Positions 1 to 11,864 of a stretch of 12,014 bases of DNA are shown piece by piece (within the stretch, counting starts at the first letter, position 1; the number at the start of each line of letters is the position of its first letter). This DNA is from Nitrospira japonica (lineage in GTDB: Bacteria; Nitrospirota; Thermodesulfovibrionia; Thermodesulfovibrionales; SM23-35), in the NCBI GenBank assembly GCA_020725385.1, contig DYFC01000005.1, positions 1-12,014 on the forward strand, given 5' to 3'. The position numbers and the translations under genes were made by a program. The notes beneath the pieces were generated by a model that saw nothing but the letters and a program-made list of their open reading frames with translations, did not search any database and was not told the DNA's origin.

Positions 1-19
1 TAGTCTAAAATGTTATGTA

Positions 20-49
20 TTGACATATTTAAACAGCTTTTATTATCTT
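20..49 (+). promoter_or_regulatory. sigma70-type promoter, -35 TTGACA (20-25) and -10 TATCTT (44-49)
   Basis: Perfect -35 hexamer, 18-nt spacer, TAnnnT -10. The same geometry recurs at 11745-11774 ahead of a second copy of the same RNA element. Confidence 0.7.
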
Positions 50-56
50 AAATACA

Positions 57-160
57 CGCTGGGCAAGAAGTCCGGTATAAAGAAGAAAATTTAAAGTATA
101 CAAATTCAAAGCCACGAAGGCTGAAGATGCAATGAATGCATCAGCTTTCGTGGCTTTTTT
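57..160 (+). ncRNA. Structured 5' leader / candidate antitermination element (twin ANGAA-pentaloop hairpins plus overlapping terminator), copy 1
   Basis: P1 GCTGGGC-AAGAA-GTCCGGT (58-76), A-rich linker, P2 AGCC-ACGAA-GGCT (110-122). P2 is mutually exclusive with the terminator stem 108-122/143-157, which runs into a T-tract. Conserved with covariation at 11783-11864. Confidence 0.7.
108..160 (+). terminator. Intrinsic terminator/attenuator in the leader of the methyltransferase operon
   Basis: AAAGCCACGAAGGCT (108-122) pairs with AGCTTTCGTGGCTTT (143-157), inner stem GATGCA/TGCATC, then TTTTTTGTTTTT. It lies between the promoter and the ATG at 177. Confidence 0.8.
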
Positions 161-176
161 GTTTTTGGAGAAATAA

Positions 177-959
177 ATGAGAGAACAAAATTGCGGGATA
201 GCATCAATAGACTTCTGGGATAGGAATGCTAAGTGGTATGAACTCTGGTTGGAGCATAATCGATATCACGGTAGGATTATTGAAATCTTAAATTCCTTTG
301 TTAAACCAGGATGGAAAATACTTGATATTGGAGCCGGAAGCGGTGTTCTGTCTTTGCCTCTGGCTGAGAAAGGGTGTGTTATAACTGCTTTAGAACCATC
401 TGCGGCTATGAGAATGCTTCTCGAAAAAGAAATATCAAGAAAAGGTGTAAAATCTATCAAGATTGATTCACGAAGCTGGGAGAATATACCATTAAATGGA
501 ATAAAAAAATACGATCTTATTATTGCATCCAACAGCCTGCATCTTACATTTTATGGATTCATGACTGCATTAAAAAAGATATTTCTATCTGATGCCTCAA
601 ATGTTTTTGTTGTTTCCGAAAAACAATTTATTGAATGCCCAATTTGTGATAACTTCGAAGGATATTCTCTTTTCTTGACTGATAAATATTTAATAGAGAG
701 CTCTAATGCTTATCATTGTTTCGAAGAAGCATTTGAACACTGGTCATTCAAAAATCAAAGATTTCCTGACAAGGAAGAAAAGGATTTTATTTTATCGGAA
801 CTTGTTTATGAAAATGGCCATATATTGAAAAAAGGTACTGCAGAGGTTTGCGTTTATCGCTGGGGGAAAATAAATACGATTGATAATTTTATTCATGAAA
901 ATCTAAGGAGGGGAAACAATGAAATTAGGCGTGATTCTTTTTATTCTGCTGTTTATTAG
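177..959 (+). CDS. Class I SAM-dependent methyltransferase, substrate unknown
   Basis: 260-aa ORF with motif I ILDIGAGSG, post-I ALEPS and YDLIIAS. GGAG RBS at 167-170. Confidence 0.88.
   Translation: MREQNCGIASIDFWDRNAKWYELWLEHNRYHGRIIEILNSFVKPGWKILDIGAGSGVLSLPLAEKGCVITALEPSAAMRMLLEKEISRKGVKSIKIDSRSWENIPLNGIKKYDLIIASNSLHLTFYGFMTALKKIFLSDASNVFVVSEKQFIECPICDNFEGYSLFLTDKYLIESSNAYHCFEEAFEHWSFKNQRFPDKEEKDFILSELVYENGHILKKGTAEVCVYRWGKINTIDNFIHENLRRGNNEIRRDSFYSAVY
746..794 (+). repeat. 49-bp direct repeat, copy A (inside the methyltransferase CDS)
   Basis: ATTCAAAAATCAAAGATTTCCTGACAAGGAAGAAAAG[G]ATTTTATTTTA matches 9019-9067 at 48/49 positions. Confidence 0.92.
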
Positions 960-3009
960 TTCATTTTCTTTTGCAGAAGAACAAAAATTGGGAGATGATA
1001 CAAAGATATTTCAGCTCGATGAAATAACGATTTCAGAAAGTGAAATCAAAGAAGAATTAAAAACACCGAATATGACTGTAATCTTACCTGAATTGATTTT
1101 GCAGGGCATTGGCTCAACCCCTGATTCTGCATTGAGTCGTCAACCAGGCATTGACGTCCAGAGACCGCAGGAGGTTGGTGCAGCACTTGATGATGATTCA
1201 ATAAAGATCAGAGGCTTTGGATCACGCCGAATTCTTGTAACTATCGATGGTAGAACAATGAATATATCAGGGACAGCAGGTGGATATTTTATAGACTGGA
1301 CAACAATCCCACTTAATAATATAGAAAAAATTGAGGTAATTAAAGGTGTAAGCGATCCTCGTTATAGCAACACACTCGGTGGTGTTATAAATCTTGTTAC
1401 GAAAAAACCCAAAGAAGAACCTATATTCGAACTTCAGGGACTTGTTGCGAGCTTTGATACATATACAACCAGTTTTTTTCATGCATGGAAGCCGGGGAAA
1501 TTTGAATATTCACTTAGTGGAGGATATTCAGAAAGTAACGGTTATCTCAGAAATGGTGATTACTGGCTAAAGAATGCAAATGTAAATATCGGTTATGAAT
1601 TGCCATGGAACGGAAAAATAACAGGGAGTCTGCAATATATAAATGTTAAAAAAGGTTTTATAGTTTCGAATAGAAGATCAAAAGACTATGATGACCCTGA
1701 TTATGAAGAGCCGATTAACAGTTCATATCCAGCATCTGATGGCGAGATAATGTATGGAGGAATGGGAGCATATCCTGAGCCAGGAAGCTGGTGGAAAAAA
1801 GAAAAATATTATATCAATATTGGATATGAACAGAATTTTTCAAATAGTAATTTGAATCTTAATTACTGGTGGAATCATGGGGACAGGGAAGCTTACAACA
1901 CAAGAGTGTCTCTTGGAAGAGTTTTTCATAAAAAATTTTATGATGATCGCTCATTCGGTTTCGATGCTGGATATACGCTCTTTTTGAAAAAACAAACTAT
2001 TACGATTGGTGGAGATTTTAAAAGATTCAAAGATAATGGTGATAGAAACTATTCTGATGATTACAGAGAACCATTTAGAAATGGCAATTATGTAAACTCA
2101 AAAATTGTTGGATTATATCTGATGGATGATTATGAAATATCGGGCAAATTTATCATATCTCCAGGCTTGAGATATGTTTCATATGATGGAAATGTAGGGC
2201 CCGCGGGAAAAGCTGAAGGGATTGAAGAAATATCAATGGACGGAATAGCTCCTTCATTAAAAGTAACTCTCAATTACGATAAAAATACACTGGCATATTT
2301 AAGCATTGCACGTGCTCTGAGAATGCCAACTCCTCCAGAACATTACTGGCATTATTCTCCAGATGCAGGTGTTAATACATCAAATCTTCCTTTTAAGAAA
2401 GAAGATGGAATAATGATACAGGGGGGTCTTAAATCTGAATTCCCTTCAAAGACAAGAGTCGAAGTTTCTCCTTATTATTACATAATCGAAGACTACATAC
2501 AGTTCGATCTCATAAACTTTGTCTCTTATAATATCAGCAAAGCAATAATATATGGTGTAGAATTGGAAATTGCACAACAACTTGGCAAAGGCTTTTCTGC
2601 ATTTATCAATTATACCTATCAAAGAAGTAAGACAGAAGGTGACCCTTTTGTAAATAATTTTGTTTATTCTGAGGATAGAGACTTTGATGAAATACCAGGG
2701 TTACCAGAACATAAAATTAATATGGGATTTCAGTATAAAGGGAAGAATAAGGAGAAATTTACAATTTATGCAAAATATGTATCGGATCAGAGTGTAATAT
2801 ATAATAACAATACGCTCTATAACACCGAACTTAGAGTTCGCAAGCAGGATTCATTTATAACTGCTGATATTGAAGCTTCATATCCAATTACAAAAAATCT
2901 TGAAGTAACAGGTTACATACATAATATTTTTGATAAAGATTATCAGGAACGCTTCGGTTTTACAGCTGCGGGAAGAAATTTTGGGATAGGAATGAAGGCC
3001 GTCTTTTAG
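919..3009 (+). CDS. TonB-dependent outer-membrane receptor 1
   Basis: 696 aa. Signal peptide, plug motifs IRGFGSRRILVTIDG and IEKIEVIKG...GGVINLVTK, C-terminal NIFDKDY...GRNFGIGMKAVF ending in Phe. RBS AAGGAGG at 905-911. Overlaps the end of the methyltransferase ORF by 41 nt. Confidence 0.93.
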   Translation: MKLGVILFILLFISSFSFAEEQKLGDDTKIFQLDEITISESEIKEELKTPNMTVILPELILQGIGSTPDSALSRQPGIDVQRPQEVGAALDDDSIKIRGFGSRRILVTIDGRTMNISGTAGGYFIDWTTIPLNNIEKIEVIKGVSDPRYSNTLGGVINLVTKKPKEEPIFELQGLVASFDTYTTSFFHAWKPGKFEYSLSGGYSESNGYLRNGDYWLKNANVNIGYELPWNGKITGSLQYINVKKGFIVSNRRSKDYDDPDYEEPINSSYPASDGEIMYGGMGAYPEPGSWWKKEKYYINIGYEQNFSNSNLNLNYWWNHGDREAYNTRVSLGRVFHKKFYDDRSFGFDAGYTLFLKKQTITIGGDFKRFKDNGDRNYSDDYREPFRNGNYVNSKIVGLYLMDDYEISGKFIISPGLRYVSYDGNVGPAGKAEGIEEISMDGIAPSLKVTLNYDKNTLAYLSIARALRMPTPPEHYWHYSPDAGVNTSNLPFKKEDGIMIQGGLKSEFPSKTRVEVSPYYYIIEDYIQFDLINFVSYNISKAIIYGVELEIAQQLGKGFSAFINYTYQRSKTEGDPFVNNFVYSEDRDFDEIPGLPEHKINMGFQYKGKNKEKFTIYAKYVSDQSVIYNNNTLYNTELRVRKQDSFITADIEASYPITKNLEVTGYIHNIFDKDYQERFGFTAAGRNFGIGMKAVF

Positions 3010-4587
3010 ATGAAAATAATATTATCTGCAATTTGTTCAATAGTATTTTTATTTTCTCTTTATGGATGTAAAGAGAATATAGAAAGACAAAAATTTTTTG
3101 AGAACACATTAGTTGTCGCTCTTTCTTCAGAACCTTTAAGTCTTAATCCTGTTTATCTTTCTGATCTCATCTCATTCACGGTAAGCGAGCTTATTTTTAG
3201 AGGACTTGTTAAATTTGATAAAGATATGAAAATCATCCCTGATCTTGCTGAATCATGGGAGATTCTCAATAATGGCAAGGAAATTAAATTCAAGTTGAAA
3301 AAAGGGGTTCTCTGGCATGATGGTACTGAATTTACTTCAAATGATGTTATTTTTACGTATCTAACTGTAATTTCACCAAAGACTTCAACACATCTCGCTG
3401 AAGTCTTTGGTCCTTTAAAAAATGTTATTGCTTTAGACCGATATACAGTGCTTGTTCGTTACAACGAGCCTTACGGTTCTGCCCTTGAAAGCTGGCGTAT
3501 AGGAATAATTCCTGAACATGTCTTTCGCAATGGGGAAACAAACATTGTCTCTTTCGATGAATCACCAATTGGCACAGGACCATATAAACTCAAAAAATGG
3601 GAACACGGGGCAAAGATTATTCTTGAATCTTTTGACAATTATTACGGTGGCAGGCCAGGAATTAAAAACATTATTTTAAAAATTATACCCGATACATCAA
3701 CACAACTTATGGAATTGAAAACAGGCGCAATTGATGTAATGGAAATTTCACCTTTACAGTTTAATCAAGTAATGAATTCTCCCGAAATTTCAAATAATTT
3801 TAACAAATATAAGACCGGTTCATTCAGGTATGGGTTCTTAGGATTAAATATGCTTGATGAAAGATTTAGAGATAAAAGAGTAAGGCAAGCGATTAGTTAT
3901 TCAATAGATAAAAAATGGATTATTCAGTCAGTTTTTAATAATGTTGGGAGTCCCTCAACAGGTCCTTATCCACTTGAAGCATGGTATTTCAACCCTAAGG
4001 CTAAATATTATGATTACAACCCTGCCAAAGCTATTGATTTATTAAAAGATGCAGGTTGGCAAAAGGGGGAAAACGGGGCATTATACAAAAATAATGTTCC
4101 GTTTTTTTTTACTATATTCACAAATTTTGAGAACAAAGAAAATTTAAAAATAGCACAAATTATACAGGATAATCTCAAAAAAATAGGGATAAAAACAGAA
4201 ATACAAACTTTTGAATGGCAGACCTTCAGGCATAATGTGGTTAGCAAACATCAGTTTGAAGCTATTATTCTATCACGAGCGTATCTCTGGGATCCTGATA
4301 TATATGATTTATGGCATTCAAGCAAGACAGACGAAGGAGAATGGAATTTTTTATCATACAAAAACCCTGTAATAGATAATCTTCTTGAAAAAGGGAGAAA
4401 AACTATTAATCAATATGAACGAAAAAAAATTTACCAAAAAGTTCAAGAAATTCTTGCTGAAGATCAAGCATCTATATTTCTCTATAATACAGAATTACTT
4501 TTTTTAGCCCATAAGAAAATTAAGGGCATTGTGCCTTCACCCGCAGGAATTCTTCATGATATTGAAAAATGGTATATAGAGCTATAA
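3010..4587 (+). CDS. ABC transporter solute-binding lipoprotein, family 5 (OppA/DppA/NikA-like)
   Basis: 525 aa. Lipobox LYGC (Cys20), family-5 signature PDLAESW...FKLKKGVLWHDG..FTSNDV, PIGTGPY and VRQAIS. The ATG directly abuts the TAG of the upstream gene. Confidence 0.92.
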   Translation: MKIILSAICSIVFLFSLYGCKENIERQKFFENTLVVALSSEPLSLNPVYLSDLISFTVSELIFRGLVKFDKDMKIIPDLAESWEILNNGKEIKFKLKKGVLWHDGTEFTSNDVIFTYLTVISPKTSTHLAEVFGPLKNVIALDRYTVLVRYNEPYGSALESWRIGIIPEHVFRNGETNIVSFDESPIGTGPYKLKKWEHGAKIILESFDNYYGGRPGIKNIILKIIPDTSTQLMELKTGAIDVMEISPLQFNQVMNSPEISNNFNKYKTGSFRYGFLGLNMLDERFRDKRVRQAISYSIDKKWIIQSVFNNVGSPSTGPYPLEAWYFNPKAKYYDYNPAKAIDLLKDAGWQKGENGALYKNNVPFFFTIFTNFENKENLKIAQIIQDNLKKIGIKTEIQTFEWQTFRHNVVSKHQFEAIILSRAYLWDPDIYDLWHSSKTDEGEWNFLSYKNPVIDNLLEKGRKTINQYERKKIYQKVQEILAEDQASIFLYNTELLFLAHKKIKGIVPSPAGILHDIEKWYIEL

Positions 4588-4702
4588 GTTTTACTGAAAC
4601 ATATAAATTGTGTAACATGAGTCATCAAGTAATAAACCCGAACAATACAACGATTGTTCAAATAGTGCAAAAAATGAAATGTAAATACAAAAATGTTAGA
4701 TT

Positions 4703-4795
4703 GTTATTCTCTGGCATACCCAGAGAATCCAATGCCTTTTTCTGGGTTAGCCGATCCCGCCACAAAAACGGCGGGCAGGCAAGTAGGGTAATGAC
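4703..4795. repeat. REP-like GC-rich palindromic element (degenerate)
   Basis: Ends GTTATT...AATGAC can pair. Internal hairpins ATTCTCTGG/CCAGAGAAT (4706-4728) and CCCGCC-N8-GGCGGG (4756-4775). GC-rich island in AT-rich intergenic DNA. Only one copy in the window, so repeat status is inferred. Confidence 0.4.
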
Positions 4796-4876
4796 GGTTG
4801 TATCCAGATTTATAGCTATCTTAGTAAGAAGAACAATTATTTTATCCGGACAAATGCTAATCCTCCGGAATATGAA

Positions 4877-4908
4877 GGGTGCGGGAGAAGTCCTGCACCC
4901 AATTTTTT
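4877..4908 (+). terminator. Probable intrinsic terminator
   Basis: GGGTGCGGGA-GAAG-TCCTGCACCC 10-bp stem followed by AATTTTTT. Confidence 0.6.
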
Positions 4909-5151
4909 ATGATGAAGGCAAATAACTCGAATAATACAGGGGTTATTAATAAATAGCCCGGGAAATACAGTTGGAGATTCTGAATCAACTCTTGGTAAAG
5001 CTTGAAACTGGATTAATGACACAAGACTTACATAGTTTTATCAATTAAACATACCATCTGACTTGATGAGAGGGTTTAGGAAGGAGGTGATTACAAAGAA
5101 AATTTAATATTCAAAAAATAAAATTAAAAATTATAAATGCAAAATTTAAAA

Positions 5152-5244
5152 CTCGGGGCAGGGTTGGTCTTTTGCGAGGACACCCTGCCCGTCGGGTAAC
5201 GCTGCGAAACACAACGCCCCTTTTAATTTTAACAGAAAGGGGTG
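5152..5244 (+). promoter_or_regulatory. Two GC-rich hairpins in the 5' region of TonB receptor 2
   Basis: GGGCAGGGT/ACCCTGCCC (5156-5164/5182-5190) with an inner stem, and CGCCCCTTTT/GAAAGGGGTG (5215-5224/5235-5244), just upstream of RBS AAGGAGG (5253-5259). Function unknown. Confidence 0.45.
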
Positions 5245-5273
5245 AGAAGAAAAAGGAGGAGGGATAAGTCATA

Positions 5274-7361
5274 ATGAAAAAAATTAATATCTTATTTGTT
5301 GTTTGGTTCTTATTGTTATTTGTATTTTGTTATAAAGATTTTAATGCTTTTGCTCAAGAACAAAACAAGGATGTAAATGAAAACACTACCTTATCTATAC
5401 AACAAGAAAAAGATAAAAAAGAAGTTTATGAACAAAGCAAGCAAAAATTAGTTCCAGGTCCGGGAGAAGTTTTTATGAATATAGGGGAAGTTGTAGTCGA
5501 AACTACAAGTGCAACTGTATCTAACGTTGATCTTCCCGGCTCTGTTGATGTAATTGGTGAAGACCAGTTAAGAAAAGAAATAACTAACAATTCCCTTGAA
5601 CTACTAAGGCGCATACCTGGTTTTATCTATCGAGATTATGGTAACGGTGGTGTGCCGAATGGTTTTACAATGCGAGGGTTCAATAGCAATCATGGCAGCG
5701 ATAATCTGGTCACAATAGATGGAATTCCAATCAATGACCATTTTTGGCAAGAAGATGGAGCCCCTGATTTTAATCAACTGACTGCAGAGGAAATAGAAAA
5801 TATAACTGTTATAAAAGGACCTATTGATGCAAGATATGGCAATTGGGGCAGAGCTGGAATCGTTAATATTGAAACTCGCAAACGTGGGGATTTTTTAAAA
5901 TCTTCTTTATCGTTAGGTAGCTGGGGAACACGTAAGGCTTATGTGAGTTTCGGAAGTGAACATTTCGATAATAAATTCAATCAAGTTTATTCTGTAGAGT
6001 ATTTTGATACAGACGCATGGAGAGAGAATAGCGAACAAAAAAGACAGAATGCTTATGCTAAATGGTATTACAGACCATTCAGTGGAATTCAATTAGGGCT
6101 TCAAACTCATGTTTATAAAGCAGACTGGTCAACTGGTGGTTATATTACCGAGGAGCAATGGAAAGATGATCCAAGACAAGCATTTGATTCTGCTCAAGAC
6201 GATGGTGGTAAGAAAGAACTGCAGGAAATTTCCATGCATCTTGACTGGAATTTAAAAAAAGATATTCCTCTTGAAGCACGTTTTTGGTATAAAACAAACA
6301 AGGCGAGCAGATGGGCAGATTGGGGTGGAGGACAAACAGAAATGTTTACAAAGGAAAGTGTATGGGGTGCTCTTGCGAATATAGGGTTTTTAAGAAATTT
6401 TGGTTCTGACAGTAAAATCAGAGTTGACTCGGGATTTGACTGGCGGAGTTTTGATTCAAATTATCAGGATTGGAATACTTATGCAAGAGTGAGGACTTCA
6501 GTTAATACAGATGATGATTATATATTCAATAATTTCGGAGTATATATCAAATCAAATTACGATGTTAATAAATATTTGCGTTTATTTGCTGGTGTACGAC
6601 ATGATTATTTTTCAGGGGATACAAAAAATAATCTCACAAATGAAAAAAGGGATATGGATAATTATAATGTTACAACATACAAAGGTGGGATTATTGGTAA
6701 TATTTCCGACAGATATAGTTTATATGCCAATATAGGTACAACTTTTACTCTTCCAAGAAAAGAACTTAAATATGCAGAAGAACATCCTGATGTAACTTAT
6801 CTATTATTTAGAGAGGTCGGGTTAAAAGCAAATCCTTTGGATTGGCTTCTTGTAAGATATGCATATTTCTATAGTGATGAAGATGTTGTTGCTTTTATTG
6901 CTGGAGATTATGTTAATCAAGGAAAAGCAATACGTAAGGGTCACGAGATTGAGGTAAATATTTTTCCTTTTGAAGGTATGACTATTTTTTCTTCTTTAAC
7001 ATTAGACAATTCTAAATTCGACGGGGGGACTAATGATGGCAATTGGGTGACTTCAGTTCCAGAATATATCTGGAATACAGGTATACAATATGATTCGATA
7101 TATGGCACGGGTGCGAGATTGTGGTATCGATCTGTCGGAAAATGGTATACGGATAGCTCAAATGAACATAGTTACAAAGGTTATAAAACTGCTGATTTGA
7201 CAGTTTATCATACTTTTGCAGATAAATGGACAGTATCATTTGATATAAAAAATCTGTTCAATCAGAAGTATGCTGAATTTGTTGGCTTCTGGAGTGGGTC
7301 GAATCAATATATGAGTAGTAACCCGAGAGGATACTATGTAACATTAAAATACAATATGTAA
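5274..7361 (+). CDS. TonB-dependent outer-membrane receptor 2, likely metal (Ni/Co) uptake by context
   Basis: 695 aa. Signal peptide, plug motifs LRRIPG, MRGF..NHGSDNLVTIDGIPIN and IENITVIKGP...YG..G.AGIVNI, C-terminal NLFNQKY...PRGYYVTLKYNM. Substrate inferred only from neighbours. Confidence 0.93.
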   Translation: MKKINILFVVWFLLLFVFCYKDFNAFAQEQNKDVNENTTLSIQQEKDKKEVYEQSKQKLVPGPGEVFMNIGEVVVETTSATVSNVDLPGSVDVIGEDQLRKEITNNSLELLRRIPGFIYRDYGNGGVPNGFTMRGFNSNHGSDNLVTIDGIPINDHFWQEDGAPDFNQLTAEEIENITVIKGPIDARYGNWGRAGIVNIETRKRGDFLKSSLSLGSWGTRKAYVSFGSEHFDNKFNQVYSVEYFDTDAWRENSEQKRQNAYAKWYYRPFSGIQLGLQTHVYKADWSTGGYITEEQWKDDPRQAFDSAQDDGGKKELQEISMHLDWNLKKDIPLEARFWYKTNKASRWADWGGGQTEMFTKESVWGALANIGFLRNFGSDSKIRVDSGFDWRSFDSNYQDWNTYARVRTSVNTDDDYIFNNFGVYIKSNYDVNKYLRLFAGVRHDYFSGDTKNNLTNEKRDMDNYNVTTYKGGIIGNISDRYSLYANIGTTFTLPRKELKYAEEHPDVTYLLFREVGLKANPLDWLLVRYAYFYSDEDVVAFIAGDYVNQGKAIRKGHEIEVNIFPFEGMTIFSSLTLDNSKFDGGTNDGNWVTSVPEYIWNTGIQYDSIYGTGARLWYRSVGKWYTDSSNEHSYKGYKTADLTVYHTFADKWTVSFDIKNLFNQKYAEFVGFWSGSNQYMSSNPRGYYVTLKYNM

Positions 7362-7409
7362 AGATCTACCAAGAAATTTAATTAACAATCTATAGGGAGG
7401 AAAGTTGAT

Positions 7410-8108
7410 ATGAAAAAATTATTTATATTCTTCATTATGGCTTTTTTGTCATCCGTGGTTGTTGTCTCAGCGCATGATGCGTGGATTCAAAAAAAAGGTG
7501 CTGATTTCCATATAATATACGGACATGGAAATAAACTTGAGTCCTATGATTTTTCAAAAATAAAAGAAATTAGGTCTTATGACTTATCCGGAAACTATAA
7601 AAAAGTTACACAAGAAAATGGAATAATACGAGAAATTAAAGATCCTGCTATGCTAACGATGTTTTTTGATAACGGTTATTGGGTTCAAACAACAGACGGC
7701 TGGAAAAACTTTACAAAACGTGAAGCTTTACAAAATAATTTGCAAATAGTTGTTTCAGAGAGGTCTCTAAAATTTCATAAGAACTATCTTAAATGGACTG
7801 ACAATTTTATGAAACCGATTGGTATGAAATTTGAGATTCTTCCTCTAAAGAATCCTCTGACTATGAAGCAGGGTGATATATTGCCAATAAAAGTCTTATT
7901 GGATGGTAAACCAGTAGAAAATGCTGCAATCAATACCGCTGAATCGCATGAGGCAGTTACAAAAACTGATAAGAATGGTTTTACAGAAGTAAAAATCAAA
8001 GAAAAAGGATTCTGTCTTATTAGTGCCTTTATTGAACAACCACTTGAAAATGATCCTGATGCTGAAAAATTATTTCTCAGTGCTAATATAACATTCGATT
8101 TAAAATGA
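7410..8108 (+). CDS. DUF4198 / NikK-like periplasmic nickel/cobalt transport-associated protein
   Basis: 232 aa. Signal peptide followed by AHDAWI (His at the predicted mature N-terminus), YGHG, FEILPLKNP, VLLDGKP and TDKNG, typical of DUF4198 proteins. RBS AGGGAGG at 7394-7400. Confidence 0.8.
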   Translation: MKKLFIFFIMAFLSSVVVVSAHDAWIQKKGADFHIIYGHGNKLESYDFSKIKEIRSYDLSGNYKKVTQENGIIREIKDPAMLTMFFDNGYWVQTTDGWKNFTKREALQNNLQIVVSERSLKFHKNYLKWTDNFMKPIGMKFEILPLKNPLTMKQGDILPIKVLLDGKPVENAAINTAESHEAVTKTDKNGFTEVKIKEKGFCLISAFIEQPLENDPDAEKLFLSANITFDLK

Positions 8109-8587
8109 AAAAGACACTAATATTTTTCATGCTTCTTCTGCTCCTGATATATTCAGGGGCAGAAGCACATTCTGTTCATTATCAGGTAGAAAATAAGGGA
8201 ATCAGTGTAAGAGTTTTCTATTCAGAGGATGACCCTGCGAGTTATTCAGCTTATGAGATATTTGGTCCTGAAGATAAGATTCCGTATCAGAAGGGAAGGA
8301 CAGACAAAAATGGATTTGTGTCTTTTTTACCTAATAGGAAGGGTAAATGGATAATAAATGTATATGGAGAATCGGAGCATAGTATGCATGGCGCAAGAAT
8401 TGAGGTTAATGTCAATGAAAGTCTTTATATGGAATCTTTCAAGAAACCTCTGGTAGCGAGATATACAAAAGTATTTGTTGGAGTTAGCATTCTTCTTGCG
8501 CTATTTGGCATTTGGGCGTTAACGAGGCAATTAAAACAGGGTAGAATTATAGGGAAAAGCGGTTCAAGCTCTGAATCCAAAGAATAG
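8105..8587 (+). CDS. NikL/CbiL-like exported nickel-transport accessory protein with C-terminal membrane anchor
   Basis: 160 aa. Signal peptide then AHSVH, QKGRTDKNGFVSF.P...G.W, H-S-M-H-G motif and a hydrophobic C-terminal helix (VFVGVSILLALFGIWAL). ATGA overlap with the upstream gene. Confidence 0.72.
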   Translation: MKKTLIFFMLLLLLIYSGAEAHSVHYQVENKGISVRVFYSEDDPASYSAYEIFGPEDKIPYQKGRTDKNGFVSFLPNRKGKWIINVYGESEHSMHGARIEVNVNESLYMESFKKPLVARYTKVFVGVSILLALFGIWALTRQLKQGRIIGKSGSSSESKE

Positions 8588-8745: not shown

Positions 8746-8904
8746 ATGTGTTGCCATAATAAAGATAAGCATGAGCACGAGCATGAGCATAAGGAAATAA
8801 CTCATACTCACGATGGTCATGAACATAAACATTTAGCTGAAAAACATTCTCACGAACATGTGCATGATGACCATCACAAGCACGACCATAAGTGCTGTCA
8901 CTAA
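8746..8904 (+). CDS. 52-aa His-rich putative metal-binding peptide (Hpn-like composition); absent from the ORF track
   Basis: Manual translation: MCCHNKDKHEHEHEHKEITHTHDGHEHKHLAEKHSHEHVHDDHHKHDHKCCH*. 19 His and two Cys-Cys pairs. Very strong RBS AAGGAGGTGAT (8730-8740) 5 nt before the ATG. Confidence 0.88.
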   Translation: MCCHNKDKHEHEHEHKEITHTHDGHEHKHLAEKHSHEHVHDDHHKHDHKCCH

Positions 8905-8929
8905 AGGGAAGCCATAGAGTTTAAGGAAT

Positions 8930-8990
8930 AAGCCACGAAGGCGAAAACCGTATCAGAAGATTCGGGAAAGTATTCGTGGCTTCCCTTTTT
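8930..8990 (+). terminator. Partial third copy of the leader element (P2 plus terminator, no clear P1)
   Basis: AAGCCACGAAGGC (8930-8942) retains the GCC-ACGAA-GGC hairpin. 8930-8939 pairs with TTCGTGGCTT (8973-8982), followed by CCCTTTTT. It lies between convergent genes. Confidence 0.65.
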
Positions 8991-9018: not shown

Positions 9019-9067
9019 ATTCAAAAATCAAAGATTTCCTGACAAGGAAGAAAAGAATTTTATTTTA
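9019..9067 (+). repeat. 49-bp direct repeat, copy B (methyltransferase-derived fragment)
   Basis: 48/49 identity to 746-794. Its last 3 nt are the stop codon of the minus-strand radical SAM gene. Confidence 0.92.
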
Positions 9068-10057
9068 CGGTTGAAAAAACTTTGATGGACCTGTAAGGAC
9101 TTTCCATTCAGCTTCGTTAAATAATTCTCTGCATTGTTGTACTGTCAATCCTCTTTTCCCTTCTGTATCTTTTTCAGTATCACGTGGATTTGAGCCAGAC
9201 TCTGCCCAGATTAAATTTGCCCCTGCAGAAATACTTATAACATTGGGTTCATGAGTACAGTTTCCGGGTATGCTGTAACCTGTTGCTAATCGCACGACTG
9301 CAACTATATGAGCCATTTTTGCCTCGCTTAATTTCCCGTATTTTTCTTTTTCTGTACCGGGTATCGGTATCCTTCGCATTGCTCCACTAAAAGCCGGCTT
9401 TATTTCTCTGGTTATGATTGTCTTCTCTACAAGTTCATCAACTGAATGTTCTTTACCTATGGGTTCTACACATGTGCCGATAGTTAAACCTGCTGCCCTG
9501 GCATTTTTAAAAGTTTGTATTCTTTTTTCAGGTGGTATTTTTGTATCCTTACCTTCACCCATCCGTACAGCATGATATATTCCTGAAAAACCAGAATCTT
9601 TCAACTTAAAAGCCTGTTTTTCAGAAAAGTCATCAACATTAGCAATAAGGATTGTATCGGGTCTTAAAGATTTTCTAACCTCCTGTGATATATCTATGAA
9701 TTTTTCAAAAGCATATCTTGCTGTTGACATAAGATAGATTGCATTAGCGCCGTCATTTTCGAACTCCATTGAACGTTTAACTACTTCTTCAACGGATAGT
9801 TCAATGGTTTCATTAAAAACCTTGTTACATGATGCAAAAGAACAAAATTTGCAGTTGCGTGGACATCGTGCTATATCAAGTCCAACCTGAGCATGAACTT
9901 CGGCAAAGCCATTCGAAGCATTTTCGCACATCTGCCTCGAAGCAGATTGAATCATGGCCCATTCGTAAGAGAATAAAGGTACTTTGAATAAGAGTTTTAT
10001 TTCTTCCGGATTGAGAATAATACCTGACAGAGCTTTTTTTATAATTTTCTTTATCAT
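9065..10057 (-). CDS. Radical SAM protein, biotin synthase-like subfamily (probably not true BioB)
   Basis: 330 aa. CxxxCxxC motif CPRNCKFC, RRIPIPGT, VAVVRL and GANLIWAE resemble BioB/HydE/PylB-like enzymes. The BioB YNHN motif is replaced by YHAV. Confidence 0.87.
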   Translation of the reverse strand: MIKKIIKKALSGIILNPEEIKLLFKVPLFSYEWAMIQSASRQMCENASNGFAEVHAQVGLDIARCPRNCKFCSFASCNKVFNETIELSVEEVVKRSMEFENDGANAIYLMSTARYAFEKFIDISQEVRKSLRPDTILIANVDDFSEKQAFKLKDSGFSGIYHAVRMGEGKDTKIPPEKRIQTFKNARAAGLTIGTCVEPIGKEHSVDELVEKTIITREIKPAFSGAMRRIPIPGTEKEKYGKLSEAKMAHIVAVVRLATGYSIPGNCTHEPNVISISAGANLIWAESGSNPRDTEKDTEGKRGLTVQQCRELFNEAEWKVLTGPSKFFQP

Positions 10058-11744: not shown

Positions 11745-11774
11745 TTGACAAAAATTACACATATCAGGTACTTT
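11745..11774 (+). promoter_or_regulatory. sigma70-type promoter, -35 TTGACA (11745-11750) and -10 TACTTT (11769-11774)
   Basis: Perfect -35 and 18-nt spacer, same layout as 20-49, immediately before leader copy 2. Confidence 0.7.
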
Positions 11775-11782
11775 AATTAAAA

Positions 11783-11864
11783 CTACGGGCAAGAAGTTCG
11801 TAGCAGAAAGAGAATAGTAAACCACGAAGGTTTTGTGCTTAATGACATGCTTTCGTGGTTTTTT
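11783..11864 (+). ncRNA. Structured RNA element (twin ANGAA-pentaloop hairpins plus overlapping terminator), copy 2
   Basis: P1 CTACGGGC-AAGAA-GTTCGTAG (11783-11803), P2 AAACC-ACGAA-GGTTT (11819-11833), terminator stem 11819-11831/11849-11861 with T-tract to 11864. Confidence 0.7.

Follow-up and report, generated by a model that had tools for sequence, protein, structure and literature searches.

A conserved RNA leader with GAA-loop hairpins stands before nickel/cobalt-uptake genes in Thermodesulfovibrionia and may respond to nickel

At one end of a contig from Nitrospira japonica, a promoter is separated from a putative metal-uptake operon by two very small hairpins and a long intrinsic terminator, which raises the question of what this element is and how transcription passes it. 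The stretch analyzed here, called the window, is the full length of a 12,014-bp contig (C24); the genome measures 2.46 Mb, with a completeness of 96.6%. A first-pass annotation of the window had read the element as a candidate antitermination switch. We propose that it is a nickel-responsive terminator/antiterminator 5' leader that would control nickel/cobalt-uptake genes and be read by a trans-acting factor, a reading to which we give a probability of roughly 0.55.

Structure, conservation and genomic position of the leader

Folding of bases 55-165, which hold the first copy of the element (copy 1, Table 1), yields a minimum free energy (MFE) structure of -42.6 kcal/mol that consists of hairpin P1 and a single long hairpin (108-157) with a U-run after it. 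The z-score is -7.0 and none of 200 shuffles folds equally well. P1 is probably the extreme 5' end of the transcript. The residues of the second small hairpin, P2, form the 5' arm of the long hairpin, and P2 and the terminator are mutually exclusive. Copy 2 scores 74.5 bits with the covariance model and displays the same P1 and P2 loops on compensated stems: in P1, G58-U76 becomes U-A, C59-G75 becomes A-U and U60-G74 becomes C-G, and in P2 G111-C121 becomes A-U together with a change of C154 to U in the terminator. The first-pass annotation had described all these changes correctly, and the promoter, P1, P2, the long terminator and the second copy lie where it had placed them. Its statement that the linkers between P1 and P2 differ in length is likewise right, with measured values of 34 and 17 nt in place of its approximate 31 and 15 nt. 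No gene is visible downstream of copy 2 because the contig ends 147 nt further on. The -10 element of copy 2 (TACTTT) was missed by the promoter scan, and a simple terminator scan called neither of the two long hairpins because each contains internal loops. Allowing up to one mismatch, CCACGAAGG occurs six times in the window against 0.89 expected.

To follow the element through other genomes we built two covariance models. R1, made from three local copies and searched at E ≤ 1, matched 39 of 61 related genomes, including 28 of the 36 from the same family; R2, made from 48 matches and searched at E ≤ 0.001 in 151 genomes sampled across the class, matched 52. The E-values are rough, as model calibration was shortened, and strict filters, under which false negatives occur, were applied whenever a scan covered more than 40 genomes; many of the genomes are incomplete metagenome-assembled genomes (MAGs). 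Together the two models yielded about 100 copies, from Thermodesulfovibrionia (Nitrospirota) and Syntrophia/Desulfobacca-type Thermodesulfobacteriota. Used as a probe, the S-adenosylmethionine (SAM) methyltransferase gene that follows copy 1 was also found in Syntrophaceae, Syntrophobacterales, Desulfobacca and Desulfobacterales MAGs, and R2 matched the plus strand upstream of it in 43 of 56 methyltransferase-bearing loci (57 loci searched).

Alignment of 102 matches at E ≤ 1e-5, which comprise 93 distinct sequences, shows that the structure is maintained. Among the distinct sequences 92.6% of paired cells can pair, compared with 75.2% in shuffles, a value that 0 of 500 shuffles reach and that is to be read with the alignment having been fitted to the covariance model, which favors the model's own structure; slid controls give 34-48%. 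Double-sided changes occur in 18 of 25 pairs, with covariation in all seven pairs of P1, all five of the apical helix (P3) and 6 of the 13 pairs of the terminator base helix, where 94% of cells are paired. The 5' arm of the terminator behaves differently from its partner. GCC is present in 92-93 of the 93 sequences, the following A in 88, the Y position is U in 52 and C in 40, and GAAGG is found in all 93 (alignment columns G124, A125, A126, G127 and G128), while the 3' partner columns read C83/U9/G1, U64/C20/A6/G2, C59/U20/A9/G3 and G76/U11/C3/A2. Because this arm is near-invariant while its 3' partners vary, GCC-AYGAA-GGC is constrained by more than pairing within the terminator. In RNAs that end immediately upstream of the 3' arm, P2 belongs to the MFE structure in 77 of 91 copies, with a median pair probability of 0.96.

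The loops follow a common pattern. P1 loops are TGAA (15), ACGAA (12), AAGAA (10), TCGAA (6), ATGAA (4) and others, family-wide a tetra- or pentaloop (N)NGAA closed by C-G in 47 of 73 cases, and P3 loops of the relatives are mostly (N)YGAA between C-C and G-G. The ANGAA pentaloops that the first-pass annotation regarded as invariant are thus identical between the two window copies and not so in the family, where the recurring unit is a C-(N)YGAA-G hairpin. Its proposal of small hairpins before an intrinsic terminator, one of them overlapping it, is borne out by the fold and the family alignment. Three other explanations of these elements were rejected: a leader peptide starting at the AUG in the P2 loop, because that triplet reads ACG in 40 of 93 sequences; kissing loops, as the conserved single-stranded elements are all purine-rich GAA and mutually non-complementary; and an intrinsic antiterminator formed by P1, which cannot pair with the invariant core because its stem sequence is not conserved.

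The element occupies a leader position. A same-strand open reading frame (ORF) starts within 450 nt in 91 of the 93 distinct copies, at a median distance of 22 nt, and the other two run off the locus. A sigma-70-like promoter was detected near the 5' end of the model in 45 of 91 copies, where shuffles predict 6.9. Among the 75 copies that RNA search alone had brought up, with names taken from Pfam, the first gene encodes the methyltransferase (17 copies), TonB (14), a 66-aa helical protein with an EHNNEH motif (11), an OprB porin (7), a TonB-dependent receptor (4), a MetA-type channel (3), CbiM (2) or, once each, ExbB, a multihaem cytochrome, DUF3842 and a His-rich protein; in 11 copies it is of unknown type and in two no gene precedes the locus end. 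The regulon comprises TonB/ExbBD, TonB-dependent receptors, porin-CbiM(NikM)QO, the methyltransferase and His-rich proteins. This placement supports a conserved cis-regulatory RNA, as the first-pass annotation had supposed, rather than a random, dispersed repeat, and the coherent metal-uptake gene set, with its strong nickel link, agrees with its suggestion that the leader controls the uptake operon.

We considered whether the copies are instead trans-acting small RNAs (sRNAs) that merely adjoin metal genes. Such an account, which we regard as very improbable, would fit the promoter and terminator that every unit has of its own, the A-rich linker followed by a U-tail as in Hfq-binding sRNAs, and the lack of a visible gene after copy 2. 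It does not fit the same-strand genes closely following nearly all copies, the single coherent regulon that they form, or the nature of the conserved part, which is the 5' arm of a terminator and not a single-stranded seed.

In the mechanism that we favor, the leader RNA would set transcription read-through into the nickel/cobalt-uptake genes. Its layout corresponds to a Rho-independent attenuator, with a stable GC-rich hairpin and U-run between promoter and first gene and an alternative fold that uses one of the arms. The nascent RNA would fold into two or three small hairpins (P1, P2, P3) with loops ending in GAA, usually closed by C-G. As it emerges, the 3' arm of the terminator would displace the 3-bp P2 and form the long, very stable terminator (median -35 kcal/mol across the family), making termination, and hence OFF, the default state. 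When nickel is scarce, a factor would recognize the GAA-loop hairpins and hold P2, aided by P1 and/or P3; the held P2 would block strand invasion and permit read-through. When nickel is replete, the factor would release the RNA and transcription would stop.

Three architectures and a variant were distinguished. Type A is composed of promoter, P1, a linker with an RGAA box, P2, P3 and terminator; the RGAA box lies 4-8 nt 5' of the core and is ACAAA at 100-104 in copy 1 and AGAAA in the copy on contig C2. Type B, found for the most part ahead of porin-cbiM operons, begins 10-20 nt downstream of the promoter, lacks P1, has a different P3 and often carries an A.C mismatch in the terminator; a type B copy in the genome precedes OprB-CbiM/PDGLE-CbiQ-CbiO. 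Type C is found directly after the His-rich ORF in the window, and its layout recurs after His-rich ORFs in loci L045 and L007. Two alternative partners are open to its 3' arm (8972-8986), the core and 8906-8914: on the core, CCC is left before the U-run, and on the upstream GGGAAGCCA the U-run follows directly after the stem. We infer that in type C a factor holding the core hairpin would favor termination, opposite to types A and B. In the variant, seen before the methyltransferase in L125, L134, L138 and L141, the C-AUGAA-G loop is kept on a 6-bp P2 stem, and a different terminator takes the 3' half of this stem as its 5' arm.

Table 1 Features of the window around the leader copies
Feature	Position	Strand	Details
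Sigma-70-like promoter, copy 1	TTGACA 20-25; TATCTT 44-49	+	18-nt spacer; promoter scan 10/12
P1 hairpin, copy 1	58-76	+	7-bp stem, 58-64 with 70-76; AAGAA loop 65-69; closing pair C64-G70
A-rich linker, copy 1	77-110	+	34 nt; length variable family-wide
Intrinsic terminator, copy 1	108-166	+	long hairpin 108-157; U-run 155-160 and 162-166
P2 core hairpin, copy 1	111-121	+	G111-C121, C112-G120, C113-G119; ACGAA loop 114-118
P3 hairpin, copy 1	126-142	+	terminator apex; AUGAA loop 132-136
Operon after copy 1	177-4587	+
SAM methyltransferase	177-959	+	in operon after copy 1
TonB-dependent receptor	919-3009	+	in operon after copy 1
Family-5 solute-binding protein	3010-4587	+	NikA-type; in operon after copy 1
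Second uptake cluster	5274-8587	+	TonB-dependent receptor, DUF4198 protein, NikL-like protein
52-aa His/Cys-rich ORF	8746-8904	+	likely metal binder
Type C element	8906-8990	+	core hairpin 8932-8942; AGAA-loop hairpin inside terminator
Copy 2	11745-11864	+	TTGACA 11745-11750; P1 11783-11803; P2 11821-11831
Terminator, copy 2	3' arm 11850-11859; U-run from 11860	+	fold z = -6.3

Within the genome, contig C2 carries a near-identical copy of the motif, with 2 differences over about 170 nt from the window start, and further copies lie at C2:25549-25642 and, in P1-less form, at C6:~1986-2093; the type C element is the third architecture. The repeat of promoter and motif spans window 1-170 and G000:C2:20600-20800. 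Assembly probably broke there, because the contig begins exactly where the near-identical C2 copy starts. Contig C46 also begins 77 nt before a DUF3842 gene.

Several genes beside the leader copies drew attention in their own right. The NikL-like protein of the second uptake cluster matches the NikL family with E = 1.4e-11, below the curated cut-off. The N-terminus of the methyltransferase (window 177-300) contains a W-x-EHN-x-YH motif like the EHNNEH of the 66-aa helical protein (L008:1621-1815, L024:1291-1488), which belongs to no Pfam family and is often the first gene after the motif; judging by these motifs the two may share a metal-binding helix. A 95-aa family of three members with no Pfam/NCBIfam match and, by sequence reading, a CobN-like fragment were both found in motif-controlled operons (L008, L028, L077). 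A tRNA-Sec gene adjoins motif-controlled nickel-uptake operons at L020:1695-1787 (63 bits) and L030:1847-1936 (46 bits). At G000:C2:22783-25642 (L054 12783-15643, minus strand) a motif copy precedes genes for a multihaem cytochrome c, a V4R-domain protein and a 197-aa protein of unknown type, followed by a hybrid histidine kinase; none of this set is a transport gene.

A second conserved leader of about 200 nt was observed at window 5055-5255 and on C2 (L001 ~1150-1340, minus strand), about 90% identical, before two paralogous TonB-dependent receptor genes. It has a GC-rich hairpin and a terminator-like CCCCUUU...AAAGGGG and no Rfam match, and on C2 it stands in tandem after the GAA-loop motif. 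The 118-aa ORF at 4569-4925, in the gap that separates the solute-binding-protein gene from the next receptor gene, seems spurious and covers a GC-rich, structured stretch. Read-through past 8746-8990 would be antisense to a radical-SAM gene on the minus strand (9065-10057).

Mutual exclusion of the motif and NikR

NikR_C was not found in the window's genome, in a search whose control was positive in 5 of 14 reference genomes. Among the 61 relatives it is present in eight, all of them without an RNA match. The 151 class genomes include 52 that are motif-positive and 42 that are NikR-positive; only two are both, compared with about 14 under independence, and in these two (G067, G097) the RNA matches are weak, with E of about 4-5e-4. 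The same pattern is seen at single loci. The accessible part of PMC545781 gives the delta-proteobacterial NikR box as GTGTTAC-N13/14-GTAACAC, and of the 56 methyltransferase loci 43 have the motif, four have NikR boxes and none has both. Since the box scan, run with up to 3 mismatches, also matches 68 of 1120 shuffles (6% false positives), the four boxes count only together with an adjacent nikR, which stands right beside the methyltransferase locus in all four genomes.

Running R2 with filters off resolved two families further. At E ≤ 1 it found no match in 12 cbiM loci of seven genomes of family f5, and the four f5 genomes sampled earlier are all NikR-positive, with nikR abutting cbiM. In family f4, 6 of 12 loci (from 6 of 7 genomes) gave a match in the correct orientation shortly before cbiM, so that f4 had escaped the genome scans under strict filters. 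Motif and NikR mutually exclude each other across genomes, and from this distribution the leader system appears to take NikR's place in these lineages.

NikR governs the genes that the leader precedes, nik(M)QO/cbiM and the methyltransferase operon, and presumably shuts them off in the same nickel-dependent way (PMC545781, accessible part). NikR is a DNA-binding repressor of initiation, whereas the leader is proposed to act on RNA after initiation. That the element is instead a DNA operator, an inverted repeat bound by a dimeric transcription factor with the RNA fold incidental, is in our view extremely improbable. The arms do form an inverted repeat, as do the sites of the regulator whose place the element seems to take (PMC545781, accessible part), but their spacing varies (19, 24 and 28-30 nt, for example) where NikR sites have a fixed 13-14 nt, and the two arms are unequally conserved. 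Moreover, pairing in P1 and P3 persists through sequence change, a U-run follows in every case, the element is transcribed, lying downstream of the promoter, and true NikR boxes occur only in motif-less loci.

Candidate trans-acting factor

According to the accessible part of a 2025 review (PMC12591593), the RNA-binding antiterminator classes that it covers are CAT, ANTAR and HutP. ANTAR (PF03861) was detected neither in the window's genome nor in any of the 36 genomes of its family, and in only two of the 61 relatives (G050, G048). CsrA (PF02599), with a control positive in three genomes, and HutP (PF09021) and CAT_RBD (PF03123), whose controls worked, were not found in the window's genome. 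Together with the differing loops, these results agree with the first-pass view that the motif is neither an ANTAR nor a CsrA target. For the trans-acting factor that would read the leader, the leading candidate, judged by its phylogenetic profile, is the protein pair DUF3842-CooT.

DUF3842 (PF12953) came to attention because the DUF3842-CooT pair directly follows the motif in locus L030. It exceeds the cut-off in 50 of the 61 relatives, none of them NikR-positive, and G055 has a sub-threshold fragment only. In the class it occurs in 86 of 151 genomes and overlaps NikR in two (G067, G114), where about 24 would be expected. In each of families f7, f2 and f4 the sole DUF3842-negative genome sampled is the sole NikR-positive one (G179, G183 and G167), and in f18, where 20 of 50 genomes have DUF3842 and 22 NikR, one has both. 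DUF3842 accompanies the motif in 48 of 52 motif-positive genomes; the exceptions are three weak matches and G165, which has a strong motif match in an assembly of about 210 contigs. Motif-bearing Thermodesulfobacteriota have DUF3842 in five of five cases and NikR in none of the five. The four NikR-box genomes have no DUF3842, and the variant-motif genome has DUF3842 and no NikR.

The DUF3842 gene always lies directly upstream of that for CooT, whose start overlaps the DUF3842 stop by 4 nt. Two database records (P0003, P0005), either of which may be a gene-calling artefact, join DUF3842 to other domains: one is a 384-aa fusion of DUF3842 and CooT, and in the other the N-terminal part of DUF3842 is attached to a YacP-like NYN domain. 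A literature search for DUF3842 returned an unrelated mention only. CooT is described in the accessible part of PMC6006190 as a 7-kDa dimer to which one Ni per dimer binds via Cys2 (Kd 9 nM). This Cys2 is invariant in the sequences examined here. The original description of CooT reportedly assigns it an Sm-like fold. Other candidates were set aside. The 66-aa helical protein is absent from the window's genome by tblastn; the methyltransferase is a target, because it occurs in only 17 of 61 relatives, each with a motif match; and CooT alone, present in 59 of the 61, does not discriminate. A tentative extension of our reading, which we rate as possible and well short of even odds, is that DUF3842-CooT forms a nickel-sensing ribonucleoprotein, a new class of RNA-binding antiterminator that would read nascent GAA-loop hairpins and replace NikR as master regulator in Thermodesulfovibrionia and several Thermodesulfobacteriota lineages.

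Could the RNA do without a protein? A true riboswitch, in which the loops assemble around Ni2+/Co2+, a nickel complex or a metallophore and so choose between P2 and terminator, is unlikely on balance. Metal-stabilized P1/P2/P3 would give the switch the wrong logic, turning uptake genes ON in the presence of ample metal, and ligand stabilization would change little next to a terminator that is already so stable. In addition, the loops are not mutually complementary, P1 is dispensable in the cbiM copies, and a protein pair with a fitting phylogenetic profile exists. The idea draws its appeal from the missing antiterminator families in the window's genome, from the apparent replacement of a metal sensor by the leader, and from the invariant purines G-A-A-G-G, which could offer N7 ligands; very small two-hairpin riboswitches with a variable linker also exist, guanidine-II being one.

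Several observations weigh against the factor-read leader that we prefer. The related genomes are not independent samples. The cbiM copies have no P1 and an AGCA-like P3 loop, so that 'twin hairpins' are not universal: the twin layout of the first-pass annotation holds for P1 and P2 in the window, while in the family P3 is a usual third hairpin and many cbiM copies dispense with P1. The covariation that it reported is recovered in P1, terminator base and P3, and is almost absent from P2, where pair variation is tiny (G-C 87, G-U 4, A-U 1 of 93 distinct sequences, the single A-U being copy 2 of the window). Because P2 hardly varies, its support is indirect and comes from conservation, the folding of truncated RNA and the variant architecture. 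As to the candidate pair, the structure model of DUF3842 (pLDDT 82) shows a generic Rossmann-like fold, for which no RNA-binding relative emerged (best Foldseek TM about 0.5). CooT occurs in genomes with NikR as well, and 38 DUF3842-positive genomes have no RNA match under strict filters, those of f4 among them being false negatives. No motif stands upstream of the housekeeping DUF3842-CooT operon in 11 of the 12 loci shown; the twelfth, L174, has two upstream matches to the core pattern. Those who described CooT are said to have found no support for an RNA role.

Relation to known systems and meaning for nickel control

Rfam 15, with NiCo, mini-ykkC and cobalamin among its families, matched nothing at the motif in the full window (E ≤ 5), in 20 motif-bearing loci (E ≤ 1) or in 19 methyltransferase loci (E ≤ 0.01), and for bases 30-175 (146 nt, E ≤ 10) gave only sub-threshold matches to small RNA, microRNA, small nucleolar RNA and leader families. 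A literature search aimed at the motif, with the supplements of surveys outside its reach, found no description of it. The main text of a 2017 survey of 224 candidate RNAs, its supplement not being covered, mentions neither nickel, cobalt nor cbiM, and surveys of 26 and 50 genomes contain none of the motif-related terms looked for. The first-pass annotation had recognized no named family here, and the Rfam scan accords with that.

The closest resemblance in working is to ANTAR targets (EutV, NasR, AmiR). These are defined in the accessible part of PMC3369931 by two mini-hairpins with stems of at least 3 bp, a variable linker and hexaloops with A1/G4; as here, the second hairpin lies at the 5' base of a terminator and excludes it, and the loops have conserved purines, which in ANTAR targets are the recognition points. 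Unlike them, the present loops are tetra- or pentaloops ending in GAA, with AYGAA in P2, a third hairpin is usual, ANTAR proteins are missing from the genome and its family, and the regulon concerns metal uptake. CsrA/Rsm targets differ in carrying GGA where these loops carry GAA and in a cognate protein that was not found in the window's genome; the same lack of a cognate protein sets apart HutP and CAT (BglG/LicT) targets.

These comparisons bear on whether the leader is a divergent form of a catalogued motif, be it an ANTAR or CsrA target or the NiCo-AnGGAG of the 2017 survey. NiCo-AnGGAG reportedly has two hairpins with purine-rich loops and nickel/cobalt genes; if so it would share the gene theme, and the two mini-hairpins, the second at the 5' base of the terminator, fit the ANTAR model. 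Against this, the name was not found in the literature searched or in the part of the 2017 survey covered, the loops read (N)YGAA-G and not AnGGAG, and they are neither A1/G4 hexaloops nor carriers of GGA. With no Rfam match in any scan and neither ANTAR nor CsrA found in the window's genome, we consider a catalogued origin rather improbable. Guanidine-II (mini-ykkC), guanidine-IV and HMP-PP riboswitches are very small hairpin switches too, some with a hairpin or aptamer inside the terminator. The motif is unlike them in having no Rfam match, loops that are not self-complementary and an unrelated gene context.

The NiCo (czcD) riboswitch is likewise a metal-related RNA leader in anaerobes. It folds as a four-way junction and turns efflux genes ON in response to metal (PMC11672702, accessible part), unlike the small hairpins before uptake genes here, which do not match the NiCo family. 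Taken together, these comparisons suggest a leader that would be ANTAR-like in its working, an RNA-level functional analogue of NikR and unrelated to the NiCo efflux riboswitch.

As described in the accessible part of PMC11672702, nickel uptake is under DNA-binding metalloregulators, and Ni/Co RNA elements are given only for efflux. If our reading is true, a whole nickel-acquisition regulon would be controlled at the RNA level after initiation, in two phyla of anaerobes. The controlled set would span TonB-ExbBD, outer-membrane receptors and porins, NikMQO, metal-binding proteins and a methyltransferase of unknown role, and with the motif, nickel regulons could be predicted in many uncultured Nitrospirota and Thermodesulfobacteriota. 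DUF3842 would gain a testable function and CooT a second role, and either a new family of RNA-binding regulators or a new class of metal riboswitch would be added.

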